A stretch of 64,000 bases of DNA from Alphaproteobacteria bacterium (GCA_965225945.1 CBDDBZ010000031.1:192001-256000); one strand, 5' to 3'; shown: positions 4,304 to 8,878, counted from the stretch's first letter. A program made the numbers and translations. Notes: generated by a model not told the origin, from the letters alone.

Positions 4304-4691
4304 ATGATCTCGGGGGAGTCTCGGCGGGCCAGGCGCGCCGACCGACATTTCATCGAACGTGCCATGCGCGTACCGATCCTGACCCGGGAGGACGAATGCG
4401 CGCTCGCCGATCGTTGGCATCGCGACGGCGACGAGGTGGCACTACACCGGCTGATCAACGCGCATGTTCGACTGGTCGTCGGCCAGGCAGTCAAGTTTCG
4501 CCATCACGGCCTGCCCATGGGCGACGGCTATGCGGAAGTGCTGAAGATCAACAAGCATGCGACGCAAGAGCAGTTCATCTGCCGCGATCGCTGGCGCAAA
4601 CGCGATCTCGTCGTGTGGGACAACCGTTGCACGCTGCACTGCGCAACCGACTTCGATCTCGAGCACGAGCGTCGCATCGTCCGGCGCACTT
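4304..4691 (+). pseudogene. Chimeric remnant: RpoH (sigma-32) N-terminus fused to TauD-family dioxygenase C-terminus, cut by IS21 end
   Basis: PILTREDECALADRW...ALHRLINAHVRLVV..A.KFRHHGLPMGD followed by HATQ..RWRKRDLVVWDNRCTLH...RRIVRRT. Confidence 0.75.
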
Positions 4692-4804
4692 TGTTAGCGG
4701 TGGTTCCAGGGTGCGCTTATATGGTGCTCTTTTTGAGCGGTCGGTGGCGGTTGGCTGACGGGATGCTTTTGGGCTTGGCTGATTTTGTTTCGCGCTGTGG
4801 CTAT

Positions 4805-5701
4805 TCAGTCGAGGGGCCGGTCATCGATCTGGAGCGGTTCGCCGGCGCGGTCGCGCATGAGCATGTCGTTCCAGTCCAGGCCGTCGAGGGCAGGGCGCAG
4901 GCGGACGACCCTGCTGTCGTTTCGGATGAGCCGTGCCGCGGCGTCATCGCCCTGGCGGGTGGCGTCGTAGGCGCAGAAGATCCGGCCGGGGTTCCAGGCC
5001 TCGATCCATTCGGGGAGGCTTGCGGTGGCGCCGCCGGTTGAGACCACGGCGCATCCCTTGCGCCCGGCCGGGACGAGGTGGAGGGAGAGGACCGACAGGG
5101 CGTCGATTGCGTTCTTGGCGAGGATGACGGAGTTCGGCCAGTCGGGTTCCCACGACATCCAGAAGCCGCCGCGCGCGGCGGCGCCGATCGGCGCGAGGCG
5201 GCGTGGCGCCGCGGCAGGGACGATCTCGGCGCCGAGAGCCTCGCCGGCCGCGTTTCGGCGGACGAACACGGCGTTGCCGTGGCGGTCGGCGTAGAGCAAG
5301 CCGAGGTCGCGGCACAGGGCGACGAGCACATCCGCGAGGCCGCGCTGCTCGACGAGGTAGCTCTGGATGGCGGGCCAGTGGCGGTCCGGGCACGGCGGCT
5401 TCGGGTGGCGATCGGCCGGGAACCGGTCACGGCACGGCAGTTCCGAGAAGAAGCCGAGGGCCTCGGGCACGGTGCACCGGCAGGCATGGATTACCAGGTC
5501 GATCGCTCCGCCCCCGCCCTCGCCGCGCAGATGTTCGTAGAACATAAAGCCGTTGATGCTGACGACGGATCCGGGACGCCTCCAGCGCGCGGCATCGGTG
5601 GGATCGCGGCGGTAGCCGAGGCGGCGGACGACGTCTTCGAGGGGATAGCCTCGCAGGGCCTCGGCCCGCACCCGCCGGTCCCAGAGGCGGGGACCATCCA
5701 T
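4805..5701 (-). CDS. DUF3991/TOPRIM primase-like protein (passenger of IS21 element)
   Basis: GGGGAIDLV.H N-terminal motif, YLVEQRGL, LYAD.HGNAVF, AIDALS, STGG, AYDA...GD, DWNDML. Confidence 0.75.
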   Translation of the reverse strand: MDGPRLWDRRVRAEALRGYPLEDVVRRLGYRRDPTDAARWRRPGSVVSINGFMFYEHLRGEGGGGAIDLVIHACRCTVPEALGFFSELPCRDRFPADRHPKPPCPDRHWPAIQSYLVEQRGLADVLVALCRDLGLLYADRHGNAVFVRRNAAGEALGAEIVPAAAPRRLAPIGAAARGGFWMSWEPDWPNSVILAKNAIDALSVLSLHLVPAGRKGCAVVSTGGATASLPEWIEAWNPGRIFCAYDATRQGDDAAARLIRNDSRVVRLRPALDGLDWNDMLMRDRAGEPLQIDDRPLD

Positions 5702-5703
5702 GG

Positions 5704-6492
5704 CTACGCCGGCGGCGGTTCCCCGCGGTCCTGCGCGCCGGCCTTGCCGGCTCGCCGCCGGCGGCGCTCGGCGCTGCGCTGCTTCTGGCGTTCCTCGGCC
5801 TCCTTGCGGCGCCAGGACTCGGCGTCGATGGCGATGATCTCGGCGTTGTGGACGAGGCGGTCGACCAGGGCGACGAGGCAGGCGGCGTTGGGGAAGGCCT
5901 CACCCCACTCGGCGAAGGGCCGGTTGGTGGTGATTATGGTGGAGTTCTGCTGGCTGCGGCTGGAGACGATGTTGAACAGCAGATCGGCATGGCGGTTGCT
6001 GTAGGACAGGTATCCGACCTCGTCGATCACCAGCAGGTGCTGGCGGGCGTAGAAGCGCAGCCTGCGCTGAAGCAGGGTGTCGCTGTCGAGGGCGGCGAGC
6101 TCGCCGAGCATGCTGGCCGCGGTGGCGAAGCGCACGGTGTGGCCCTCGAGGACGGCGCGGTGGGCGATATTGGCGGCGATGGTCGACTTGCCGACGCCGT
6201 TTGGGCCGACCAGGACGACGTTGGCGGCCTCGTTGAGGAACTCGAGGCTCATGAGATCCTCGACGGCCATGCGGTCGCAGCGGCGCGGCCATGCCCAGTC
6301 GAAGTCGGCGAGCGGCTTGAACTGTCCGAGGCGGGCGTCGCCGAGGCGGCGCTTGAGGCTGCGGCTTCGCCGTTCCTCCTCTTCCCAGGCGACCAGCGCA
6401 GCGGGCCAGTCATGCCCGGCGACCTCGCCCCAGTGGGCGGCGAGGCCGTGCAGGCCGAGCGCCCGGGCACGGCCCATGAGGGTATCGTTCAT
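5704..6492 (-). CDS. istB: IS21 helper AAA+ ATPase IstB
   Basis: DFDWAWP, Walker A GPNGVGKS, Walker B LLVIDE, TTN, DRLVH, SWR; ATGA overlap with istA. Confidence 0.92.
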
Positions 6493-7994
6493 TGCTCGCT
6501 GTCCTCCTCGGGTTCGCCGGCCAGCCCGTCGTATCCGACGAGGTCGTGATCGCGGACAGTGATGTCGCGCACTCTCGGATCGCCGGGCAGTTCGACGGGG
6601 ATGGGCGGGGGTTGGTGCCGCAGCTCGCGCCGCCGGGTCAGGCTCAGGCGCACGGCGTTGGGATGGGGAACGTCCCGCTTCAGGGCCTCGTCGATGGCCG
6701 CCTCGAGCTCGGCGGCGCCGTAGGCGTCGAGGAGGCGCAACAGGGCGGCGACGGTGGCGCCTATATAGCCGCCGCGCTGGGCGGCCTCGGCGAGCAGGCG
6801 CTCGCTGTTGGGCGCGGCCTGGACCAGCCGGTCCTGGCCGCGAAGGCGGCGGGCATGGCTCTTGCGCCTGACCAGCTCGGCGATGTGCTCGGGGTTCTCG
6901 ATGCGGGCCGCCTTGTCGAAGCTGCGCGGATGGCTGGCGATGACGTCCACACCGTCGAGGATGCGCACCTCGTCGAGCGTCGCGACCACGACGAGGGTGC
7001 GCCGCACATGGGTGTGCGGCACGCTGTAATCGTTGAGATCGAAGCGGGCGTAGGGGGTCTTGCCGATGGCGACCTCGACCCGGTCGTGGTCGGGGAAGGG
7101 ATCGCCGGGCAGCGCGATGAGAGAGCCGCGTTCCCGCTCGAAGGCCTCGCGCACGGTGATCGAGCGGTCTTCGGGCCAGGGGCGGTCGGCGGCGATGCCG
7201 TGGCACCAGGCCAGGGCCTGGGCGTTGAGATCGTCGATATCGCGCCACCGGCGGGCGGCGAAGAAGCTGGTCCGGACATAGCGAATCGCCCGCTCCACGC
7301 GCCCCTTCTCGTTGCCGCGCGCGACCGCGACGGGCTTGGGCAGGAAGTGGTAGTGGCCGGCGAGGTCGAGGATCCGGGGATTGAACCGGATGGCGGCGCC
7401 GCGGCGCTCCAGCACGACGCTCTTCAGGTTGTCGTACCAGAGCTCGCGGGGCACGCCCTGCCACGCCTCGAAGGCTTCGACATGGCCGCGCAGGAAGTTG
7501 CTCATCCCGGCGTCGAGGTAGAAGCGCAGGAAGATCCGCCGCGAGTAGCTGAGAACCATCACGAAGCCCATCAGGCGGCGCTCCGCGCGGCCGATCGTCA
7601 CCTTGCCGAAGTGTCCCCAGTCGACCTGGGCCTGCTCGCCGGGAAGGGTCTTGAGGCGCAGATAGGCCTCGGCCACGGGCCTGGGCCTGAAGTGGCTGAG
7701 CAGATGACGGAAGTGGTCGCCGCCGCCCGGATAGCCGCGTTCGCGCACCATCTGGTAGAGCCGGCTGGCGGGCAGCGTCGGCCAGGATGCCAGCGTCTCG
7801 GCGATGAACGGCACGTATGGATCGATCATCGACGGCCTGGGCGACCTCGCGTCCCGGGGCTCGCCGGCCGCGGTGAGGAGGCGCTCGACGGTGTAGCGAT
7901 GCACGCCGAGCTGGCGTGTGATCGTGCCGACCGTCCACTTCTCGACGTGATACAGGCGCAGGATCTCCGCGCGGGTCTCCTTGTCGATGGTCAT
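6489..7994 (-). CDS. istA: IS21 transposase IstA
   Basis: N-terminal [24 protein letters not shown] (intact DDE triad). Confidence 0.93.
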
Positions 7995-8431
7995 CTCACC
8001 CCCTTTCCCGTCGGGCGCAGCCCCGGATAGACCGCCTGCCCGCAGAACCGGCCGCAGCGATCGCAGCGGAAGACCCTGGCGGGCCGCTCGTGCCCGAAGG
8101 GCCGTGTTCCGGGACGCCCTGCCGGCGTCCGCACCACAACAGGACGCCGCCGCGCGGCGGTCAAAGGGTGATGCGTCACTTCCTGCCCGCGGCGCCGATT
8201 CACCGGCGTCCGGCGCCGCCGGCGTTCGCGATAGCGCCGCTGGCGCTCAGCATGCTTGTGACGGCCCCGCCGGCTGTTCTGGTAGCGCTGCCCGGCATGG
8301 CGCTGCGATCGCCGGCGCACCCGATCGCTGCAGCTCCGTGAACAGTAGATGTTGCCGTGGTCGCAGTGCCGGCAGAGAACCACCTGTTGATGGCACGAGG
8401 CGCAGTTGAACAGGCGGGCGGTGTTCTTCAT
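7991..8431 (-). CDS. Small Cys-rich, Arg-rich putative zinc-finger protein
   Basis: CxxC-x6-CxxC-x6-CxxxC, basic helix ([11 protein letters not shown]), C-terminal CDRC; stop overlaps istA ATG. Confidence 0.7.
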
Positions 8432-8437
8432 CGCGCA

Positions 8438-8576
8438 GCCGATGAGAACGGGGTGGACCCACGCCCAAACCCGCACGATACTGCGCATATGGGTCGTGCC
8501 TTGCATGGCTCGGGGGGTGCGGTGCCGGTCGTTGCCAGCAAGCAAACGGGGCCGGCGCCGCATCGTTCTCAGCGGC
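8438..8576 (+). ncRNA. Candidate structured RNA/ssDNA element inside the IS21 end
   Basis: 13-bp closing stem enclosing several hairpins whose mismatches are G-U-compatible only on the + strand. Confidence 0.35.
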
Positions 8577-8878
8577 CCGAGTGTACTCCCGCGGCTCCCC
8601 TTGTCAGGTCCGCGGAACCGCCGCCGCCAGCCAGCCAAAACAGGAATCGAGACGCCCGCCCGCGGTGGATAAGCAGCCCGCCGCCGCCAGACTCTTGGCG
8701 GTCGCCGCGGCGGGCTACTTACCCACCGCTGCGCCGAGCCAACTCCCGCCTGCAAACCACGCAGCTACAGCGCCACGATGCCCGATGTCGCTGAAATCAC
8801 CATCTAAGCGCGGTTTTTCATCGCCACCGACACATTCGGCCAAATGCGCTGATCCCGCCGTTTAGAGCGGTTTCCGCT

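Follow-up and report, generated by a model that had tools for sequence, protein, structure and literature searches.

The DNA considered here, a window of 64,000 nucleotides from an alphaproteobacterial genome, contains an IS21-family insertion sequence of 4141 bp that is present in many copies, has been active recently, and transposes as a single unit; it encodes, in addition to the transposase IstA and the helper ATPase IstB, two accessory proteins, i.e., a small zinc-finger (ZnF) protein and a protein with DUF3991 and Toprim domains. The genes for these two proteins are integral parts of the element, as they lie inside its ends in every copy and are kept in diverged relatives. By sequence comparison, the element belongs to a widespread, previously undescribed branch of IS21 in which the primase-like gene is a very long-term companion, and a literature search found no paper connecting IS21 with a DUF3991/Toprim gene. 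The explanation that we favor, and hold to be on balance probable, is that of a mobile IS21 unit with integral accessory genes, whose Toprim protein derives from a DnaG-type primase and is non-catalytic in this particular element. The features of the element are collected in Table 1.

Table 1. Features of the IS21-family element, with positions counted from the first letter of the window.
Feature	Position	Strand	Basis or remark
Whole IS21-family element, 4141 bp	4692..8832	(-)	BLAST copy boundaries, flanks, contig breaks in other runs
Left (upstream) terminal inverted repeat region	8773..8832	(-)	starts TGT at 8832; aligned with right end
Extended leader hairpin	8636..8753	(-)	inverted-repeat search, MFE fold, consensus fold
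Sigma-70-like promoter match	8580..8607	(-)	consensus scan, pattern match only; downstream of hairpin, upstream of ZnF
ZnF gene, 146 aa	7991..8431	(-)	Met at 8431; AF2 model
istA, IS21-family DDE transposase, 501 aa	6489..7994	(-)	NF033546 249.1 bits; PF22483, PF13384, PF00665
istB, AAA+ helper ATPase, 262 aa	5704..6492	(-)	NF038214 204.3 bits; PF01695 1.7e-53
DUF3991/Toprim gene, 298 aa	4805..5701	(-)	Pfam; AF2 pLDDT 78.8; Foldseek; motif table
3' non-coding end including right terminal inverted repeat	4692..4804	(-)	ends ...CA at 4692

The evidence for mobility comes from the source genome itself, where BLAST recovered 21 full-length copies, 19 of them uninterrupted and 2 interrupted, that share 99.4–100% identity, have identical ends, and all begin and end at the bases matching window positions 8832 and 4692. 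In three further public runs, contigs are likewise broken at precisely these two positions. The termini are TG...CA in all 21 copies, and the inverted repeats, although imperfect, share the 14-mer GCGCTTA.ATGGTG in register, at positions 22–35 of both ends; a preliminary description of this DNA had placed the ends at the same bases, and both the copy boundaries and the aligned ends agree with it. The target-site duplications of the IS21 family range from 4 to 8 bp, and direct repeats of 5–7 bp flank 17 of the 21 copies. The four copies without such repeats include the one in the window, and when their flanks were paired by eye as products of recombination or inversion, no pairs were found. All four open reading frames (ORFs) are full length in 15 of the 21 copies. 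The motif GGTGG is present at positions 8 and 52 of the right end and at positions 5 and 106 of the left end, so that a second site about 50 nt in occurs at the right end only; tandem sub-repeats within the ends, which bear on the question of repeated transposase-binding sites, are clear only in a clade of five-gene relatives discussed below. Circular forms, which had also been suggested, did not appear: no end-to-end circle or tandem junction was found by a regular-expression search of the assembly or in the contigs of four runs, from which rare forms could escape. The source genome also has dozens of copies of another IS21 and, together with the 21 copies described here, offers a good natural system for the study of IS-driven rearrangement.

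The four ORFs are co-oriented on the minus strand in the order ZnF, istA, istB, and DUF3991/Toprim. ORF mapping confirmed the junctions reported earlier, with the stop codon of the ZnF gene overlapping the start of istA in an ATGA, the same overlap between istA and istB, and a gap of 2 nt between istB and the DUF3991/Toprim gene in the window element. The two accessory genes are thus packed with istA and istB as tightly as if the four were to form one message. IstA and IstB both exceed the cut-offs of their NCBIfam models (160 bits for NF033546 and 200 bits for NF038214), and IstA also has a Mu-transpos_C_2 match at 6.1e-22. The element thus has both the DDE transposase, IstA, and the AAA+ target-capture helper, IstB, and its insertions leave target duplications of about 5 bp.

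The ZnF protein combines a cluster of Cys residues at its N-terminus with two basic helices and, at its C-terminus, a CxxC. Its start was set at position 8431 because homology farther upstream shifts frame and 22 of 22 aligned homologs start there. Neither Pfam nor NCBIfam gave a match, a Foldseek search of the model against the PDB returned nothing significant (best YacG, E 3.4), and comparison with a protein atlas led to unnamed clusters only; an hhalign comparison with the ORF that comes first in the five-gene clade gave a probability of 4% and an E value of 0.01, with the register as expected. Sixteen plasmid records have a ZnF match, and in eight of these it adjoins an istAB match. The gene occurs across a wider IS21 subgroup, with or without a Toprim gene. 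Most likely, this small protein binds nucleic acid and regulates the element.

The leader of 401 nt, upstream of the ZnF gene, has a more stable fold than 100 of 100 shuffled sequences (z -2.93) and contains a hairpin whose core arms span 8662–8687 and 8704–8729 (inverted repeat 8662–8729, 26-nt arms). A consensus fold of four homologous copies contains compensatory changes, and a G-U pair is kept in all four. The structured non-coding segment of the preliminary description is therefore real, as judged from folding and covariation, but its link to the accessory genes did not hold, because a canonical two-gene IS21 relative has a covarying leader hairpin as well. No credible Rfam family was found on the element (the best match, at E 0.21, fell far short of the gathering score). 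The hairpin most likely acts as a terminator or insulator on RNA reading in from outside, and the sigma-70-like site listed in Table 1 is the sole match in the element (1 found, 0.2 expected). Contigs from RNA libraries contain the element, in one case (X4) as a contig of 4171 nt; DNA may be present in such libraries, hence these contigs are no proof of transcription.

Whether the accessory genes belong to the element can also be judged from its relatives. Three diverged loci (L022, L023, and L024) keep the full ZnF-IstA-IstB-Toprim set, with amino-acid identities of 77, 79, 84–90, and 66% for the four proteins, respectively, and the inverted repeats mapped in L022 and L024 enclose all four genes and are homologous to the ends of the window element. 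As the accessory genes also lie inside the ends in 21 of 21 copies of the source genome, the earlier proposal of a distinct IS21 subclass, rather than of random passengers, is upheld. At greater distance, the IstB gene is directly upstream of the Toprim gene in 56 of the 62 relatives with at least 700 bp of upstream sequence, a position that holds across IstA identities down to about 25%; most of these istB-linked relatives belong to an IS21-like clade of about 5 kb with five genes, in which terminal inverted repeats of 15–89 nt enclose the Toprim gene in 17 of the 30 loci tested. Of 35 relatives, 20 have a 4-nt overlap between the istB stop and the Toprim start. The two proteins also diverge together, with a Mantel r of 0.93 over all 36 pairs and of 0.75 within the distant clade (n = 32; 0 of 2000 permutations), and their trees have clades in common. 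On the other side, Toprim varies more than IstB, with a mean pairwise distance among relatives of 0.43 versus 0.31. Moreover, fusions exist that join an IstA-like HTH and Mu-transpos_C_2 to DUF3991 (P0337, P0241) or IstB to DUF3991/Toprim (P0242).

This association has a boundary. Homologs that end after istB, which would speak against the Toprim gene as a part of the element, were not seen at IstA identities of at least 76% but do occur at about 62–63%, e.g., on an Aromatoleum plasmid. When plasmids were searched at the DNA level for the complete element, the istAB part alone was recovered, with a best coverage of 53% and none of 73 records reaching 80%, and the Burkholderiaceae plasmid records with related IstAB are absent among the Toprim matches. 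Some members of the ZnF subgroup can therefore do without the gene.

The Toprim protein matches PF13154 (DUF3991; 6.6e-9, 36.5 bits, cut-off 24.5) and PF13155 (Toprim_2; 1.1e-4, 22.9 bits, cut-off 22.1). A search of its profile against PDB sequences with hmmsearch gave nothing meaningful. Foldseek comparison of the model with the PDB placed DnaG primases at the top (2au3, 1.8e-6; 1dde, 1.1e-4; TM 0.35–0.43), followed by T7 gp4 and Twinkle, with far weaker matches to nucleases and RecR (8b7f, 0.088; 3ve5, 0.12). The predicted structure thus has a DnaG-like fold made of a zinc-binding-domain-like part, an RNA-polymerase subdomain, and a Toprim domain. In the N-terminal primase-like domain (residues 1–75) no Cys is found among the invariant or nearly invariant columns, i.e., there are no conserved zinc ligands, and the helicase-binding C-terminal domain is absent, as the protein ends about 15 residues past the Toprim domain. 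The active site differs as well: the window protein has K in place of the catalytic Glu and D-A-T in place of DxD. Among 85 aligned proteins, the Glu is replaced (by K, G, or D) in ten, namely the window protein and those of L022–L030, and the same ten have a replaced DxD (DAT, with SDP in one) in which the second Asp is lost; both motifs are intact in the other 75. Toprim catalysis in the window clade is therefore doubtful, and the role in priming suggested by the preliminary description was not borne out for this copy, in which two metal-binding residues are replaced and the Toprim gene is the fastest evolving of the four. None of the four genes reaches a dN/dS of 1, the highest ratio being that of Toprim (0.52–0.59).

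The accessory genes can be read in several ways. For the window clade, a decaying Toprim relic, useful to an ancestor, functionless now, and simply multiplied in a recent burst of copying, would fit the loss of the Glu, with K, G, and D alternating as if unconstrained, the loss of the second Asp, and the dN/dS, which is the highest of the four genes, together with the fact that three of the six broken ORFs among the copies of the source genome are Toprim genes and that a variant with a 6-bp in-frame deletion is present in eight copies. We find this explanation unlikely, because the Toprim ORF is open and full length in nine of nine diverged clade members examined (62–70% amino-acid identity), its dN/dS is below 1, and 34 columns are invariant among 20 homologs, the clade-specific C-terminal tail included. 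Nucleases, like primases, can contain Toprim domains, and a resolvase gene usually adjoins the transposase gene of Tn3-family elements; as the Toprim gene of one relative (L037) takes this very place beside a Tn3-family transposase, the protein might instead be a nuclease or strand processor, which either cuts the non-transferred 5' strand, as TnsA does in Tn7, or resolves replicative joint molecules. This is the least probable of the readings considered, given that the whole-protein fold, including the zinc-binding-domain-like N-terminus, is that of DnaG primases and that the two metal-binding residues lost in the window clade would inactivate a nuclease no less than a primase.

A somewhat stronger, though still rather unlikely, alternative regards the element as a transporter IS, in which the ZnF and Toprim genes are cargo with roles outside transposition, for instance in establishing transferred DNA, in functions of plasmids or ICEs, or in conflicts with other mobile elements. 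Among named proteins, those closest to the Toprim protein (about 30% identity) are the C-terminal halves of MobV relaxases as well as "DUF3991 and TOPRIM domain-containing" proteins of conjugative or mobilizable plasmids, and the same module lies beside the Tn3-family transposase of L037 and beside an rve integrase with an AAA_25 ATPase in L031 and L032. Inverted-repeat searches around the Toprim genes of these three loci gave nothing significant. The existence of ZnF-type relatives without a Toprim gene, the dN/dS, highest among the four genes, and the degenerate site of the window clade would also suit cargo. Against it stand the position directly after istB in most relatives over so wide a range of IstA identities, the frequent start-stop overlap, the co-divergence with IstB, and the fusions to both IstA and IstB; in addition, all partners seen are DNA-mobilising enzymes that leave DNA synthesis undone. 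We infer from these sequence relationships that the Toprim protein would rather serve transposition.

In the favored explanation of an integral, non-catalytic Toprim protein, the latter would descend from an active DnaG-type primase module that has long accompanied IstB across a broad radiation of IS21-like elements. In the ancestor, the protein may have primed, or supported in some other way, the DNA synthesis needed by the replicative (copy-out/paste-in) pathway proposed for IS21, while in the window clade it would most likely assist the transposition complex without catalysis, by binding DNA or a partner, or be partly dispensable. A broader proposal, which we put forward tentatively as possible rather than probable, is that of a deep and widespread IS21-like lineage with its own DnaG-type primase, co-evolving with and sometimes fused to the DnaC-like IstB or the transposase, as a priming module for copy-out. 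If true, self-priming would be an unrecognised property of replicative DNA transposons in general, given that the Toprim gene also occurs next to Tn3-family and rve/AAA_25 transposases, and the window clade would be a natural example of a lineage that spreads even though primase catalysis has been lost. IS21, a current structural model for transposition under ATPase control, is described as having two genes; clades with intact and with degenerate Toprim sites would provide a direct handle on how its proposed replicative step proceeds. Furthermore, where annotation pipelines let IS21 elements stop after istB, the boundaries of these 4–5 kb elements are set wrongly.

With canonical members of the family (IS21, IS5376), the window element shares the IstA DDE transposase followed by an overlapping istB for the AAA+ helper, multiple copies, TG...CA termini, imperfect inverted repeats, and a target duplication of about 5 bp, in line with the insertion site of 5 bp reported for IS21 (PMC11208146). 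It departs from the description of IS21-family elements as two ORFs between two TIRs, given in a passage of PMC10122671, and from the corresponding size of about 2–2.8 kb, in having four ORFs in 4141 bp and a leader of 401 nt; in genome G029, a canonical relative is about 2.16 kb. The ZnF-type relatives on plasmids of Burkholderia, Cupriavidus, Paraburkholderia, and Aromatoleum have a homologous ZnF ORF, mostly unannotated, directly upstream of istA. Among these, the element of the Aromatoleum aromaticum EbN1 plasmid (NC_006823), with IstA and IstB 63% identical to the window proteins, keeps the ZnF gene but is about 3.35 kb long and has a 70-aa ORF after istB and no Toprim gene.

The five-gene metagenome elements (L035–L104) have the same istA-istB-DUF3991/Toprim order inside terminal inverted repeats, which in their case contain tandem sub-repeats, and begin, like the window element with its ZnF gene, with a small Cys-rich ORF. 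They differ in that IstA is just 25–29% identical, an extra ParB/KorB-like ORF is present, the size is about 4.9–5.1 kb, the NCBIfam scores fall below the cut-offs (IstA 107–129 against 160, IstB 192–197 against 200), and the Toprim site is intact in both E and DxD. Bacterial DnaG primases share the overall fold (Foldseek 2au3, 1dde, 1eqn), whereas identity is about 15% and the window protein is without the zinc ligands, the helicase-binding domain, the Toprim Glu, and the second Asp of DxD. Finally, the MobV relaxase-DUF3991-Toprim fusions of plasmids contain the same DUF3991 and Toprim_2 module, at about 30% identity and likewise joined to an enzyme for DNA nicking and mobilisation, but in these the module is intact and fused to the relaxase, whereas the window version is a separate gene behind istB.

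The element at 4692–8832 is a mobile unit that carries the IS21 machinery together with two integral extra genes, a zinc-finger gene (ZnF) and a DUF3991/Toprim gene. A search for further copies, proposed in the preliminary description, was made by BLAST of its own genome (6.27 Mb, 39 contigs) and returned a discrete repeated unit: 19 uninterrupted and 2 interrupted copies at 99.4–100% identity, all 21 with the same first and last bases as the window copy, in addition to four fragments. The ends are TG...CA, and the 14-mer said to be shared by both of them is indeed found at positions 22–35 from each end. Target-site direct repeats flank 17 of the 21 copies (5 bp in eight, 6 bp in six, and 7 bp in three); two of these 17, on contigs C18 and C37, have identical flanks and therefore represent one insertion in duplicated DNA. 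Moreover, contigs of three other public runs break exactly at 4692 and 8832, and an RNA library contains a contig of 4171 nt that covers exactly the element, which is no proof of transcription.

The window copy is among the four that lack a target duplication, and the ORF abutting its right end (4304–4691) appears, by eye, to be pieced together from the N-terminal part of a sigma factor and the C-terminal part of a dioxygenase; taken together, these two features suggest that this copy lies at a rearrangement scar. The same genome houses a second, unrelated IS21-family element (IstA 31% and IstB 35% identical to those studied here) in dozens of copies, e.g., at G000:C31:74860-77080 and about 45 further places, and is in strong IS expansion.

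The layout of the element is given in the table. The four ORFs are co-oriented with the close junctions previously described, namely ATGA at ZnF/istA, ATGA at istA/istB, and a 2-nt gap at istB/Toprim. The tabulated ZnF start is the point at which all aligned homologs begin, and upstream of which the homology shifts frame in relatives.

Features of the element, in window coordinates
Feature	Position or extent	Strand	Family matches
Leader	401 nt, first part of element	-	
ZnF gene	8431-7991	-	no Pfam or NCBIfam match
istA	7994-6489	-	above NCBIfam IS21 cut-off
istB	6492-5704	-	above NCBIfam IS21 cut-off
DUF3991/Toprim gene	5701-4805	-	above Pfam cut-offs for DUF3991 and Toprim_2
Tail	113 nt after Toprim gene	-	

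All four ORFs are full length in 15 of the 21 copies; istA, istB, and ZnF are broken in one copy each and Toprim in three, once by insertion of a repeat of ∼335 bp present in tens of copies. This repeat is MITE-like and its copies are near-identical (e.g., G000:C27:62270-62601).

Regarding close relatives, scanning species-representative genomes with the Toprim protein yielded four loci, and the three with upstream sequence (L022, L023, and L024) keep the order ZnF-IstA-IstB-Toprim, with amino acid identities to the element of 77% for ZnF, 79% for IstA, 84–90% for IstB, and 66% for Toprim. In L022 and L024 all four genes are enclosed by inverted repeats homologous to those of the element, so the arrangement claimed in the preliminary description is conserved at this distance, and homologs ending right after istB are absent among these three loci. 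Such homologs do occur farther away: relatives with IstA at about 62–63% identity retain the ZnF ORF and lack the Toprim gene, and the element of the Aromatoleum EbN1 plasmid (∼3.35 kb) has a 70-aa ORF after istB instead of Toprim. This ZnF-type relative lies between two stretches (L009:650-1750 and 5060-5600) in whose translations, by eye, the same short peptides repeat in all frames, as in a CRISPR-like array.

A ZnF match stands directly upstream of an istAB match in 8 of the 16 plasmid records having ZnF, mostly unannotated, and ZnF precedes IstA in one further genome (G136, locus L109); the same holds for two loci of an unpublished genome, G262, on which no claim rests. Both extra genes are rare in sampled genomes, with ZnF found in 3 of 400 from the class and Toprim (E 1e-15 or better) in 3 of 400 from the phylum. 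Only fragments were seen in the same-genus genome G002, at C4:30174-31416, C5:2616296-2617533, and C2:308984-309776: one is a 5' part of the element (1–1243) at 99% identity, and the others are Toprim-end pieces of related elements at 80–88%. Two N-terminally truncated Toprim copies in the window's own genome (G000:C30:9340-10134 and G000:C38:350-1144; residues 44–295, 64% amino acid identity), with duplicated surroundings and without istAB, resemble what is left of a related element.

Homologs of the ZnF protein form at least 218 clusters, none of them named, and no match to a known fold or family was found. Its invariant parts are a Cys cluster in residues 1–34, a very basic helix pair, a VTH motif, and a C-terminal CxxC. 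In its model (pLDDT 71), a small ribbon and then two long helices are separated by a disordered stretch from a second small ribbon.

The leader contains a hairpin with its core at 8662–8729, extending over 8636–8753, with a short U run after it; the sole sigma-70-like match (8607–8580) lies downstream of it. The same hairpin occurs in L024, as a remnant in the element's own genome, and, covarying, in a canonical two-gene IS21 relative of 2.16 kb (L122:3879-6035, six copies in genome G029), where it is located between istB and the right end and is inverted with respect to the genes, so that in both elements it faces inward from the nearest end. The consensus fold of these four versions, a small number, has two-sided changes in 10 of 40 pairs, and a G-U pair conserved in all four is consistent with the hairpin acting as RNA from this strand. 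The arms also contain 9-mers resembling the DnaA box.

The AF2 model of the Toprim protein (pLDDT 78.8, pTM 0.73) has its best structural matches among DnaG primases: E is 1.8e-6 for the Aquifex zinc-binding and RNA-polymerase domains and 1.1e-4 for the core of the E. coli enzyme, and T7 gp4 and Twinkle rank next. In DnaG the catalytic metals are coordinated by the Glu and the DxD motif of the Toprim domain. These residues are present in 75 of 85 aligned proteins, while the ten others, the element and L022–L030, have K, G, or D for the Glu and D-A-T, once S-D-P, for the DxD. Going by these residues, catalysis has probably been lost in this clade. Pairwise dN/dS (NG86, element versus L022–L024) is 0.52–0.59 for Toprim, 0.38–0.40 for IstA, 0.17–0.35 for IstB, and 0.37–0.46 for ZnF, all four values probably being inflated by strong GC3 bias; the Toprim gene is thus constrained, less so than its neighbors.

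The association with IS21 is wider than this clade. Homologs of the Toprim protein fall into at least 171 clusters (E 1e-5 or better). An alignment of 20 of these served as the seed for a metagenome scan that gave 173 confirmed loci, the best 80 of which were taken, so that the sample leans towards the kin of the query. When these 80 are taken together with the four genome loci, Toprim is preceded by 700 bp or more of sequence in 62, and 56 of the 62 have an IstB homolog directly upstream on the same strand. Most of these are five-gene units of ∼4.9–5.1 kb, with a Cys-rich ORF, a ParB/KorB-like ORF, IstA, IstB, and Toprim, whose IstA and IstB score best with IS21 models, yet below cut-offs. 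Terminal inverted repeats of 15–89 nt enclose Toprim in 17 of 30 tested five-gene loci; none were detectable in 10, and 3 lacked room. In 20 of 35 loci the istB stop shares 4 nt with the Toprim start. The distances of IstB are correlated with those of Toprim (Mantel r 0.93 over 36 pairs; 0.75 within the 32 pairs of the distant clade, reached in 0 of 2000 permutations), and their FastTree trees have most clades in common. Fusions are also found: DUF3991/Toprim makes up the C-terminal part of some IstA-like proteins (P0241, P0337) and is joined to IstB in P0242, and the majority of longer Toprim-module proteins are MobV relaxase fusions.

The exceptions are L033, with convergent istAB, L064 and L078, with unknown neighbors, L037, and the pair L031 and L032, the latter left out of the 56 as its IstB match is 4.3 kb distant. 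The genes ahead of Toprim in L031 (622–4984) and L032 (2340–6649) encode an rve-type integrase and a large AAA_25 ATPase whose tail is a winged helix, which makes a different transposase-ATPase-Toprim trio; their Toprim, with an intact site, is the closest outgroup of this clade's (48–51% identity). In L037 (1475–5458) a Tn3-family transposase (DDE_Tnp_Tn3, 5e-140) is directly followed by a DUF3991/Toprim gene with intact E/DxD, for which an inverted-repeat search found none; the Toprim motif of L053 is near-identical.

Co-production of IstB and a DnaG-like protein would suit the priming, or the replication hand-over, that the proposed replicative (copy-out/paste-in) pathway of IS21 needs, and the presence of the module beside relaxases, a Tn3-family transposase, and the rve/AAA_25 pair is in line with such a theme. 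In the window's clade the protein may be either a binding or adaptor part, or on its way out; the burst to 21 copies shows that the element can spread here with the site not intact. Full-text searches of papers outside subscription journals returned none linking IS21 with a DUF3991/Toprim gene, and an entry in ISfinder, or a remark in a subscription journal or a supplement, may exist. Recent structural papers depict IS21 members with two ORFs and a TIR on either side (PMC10122671).
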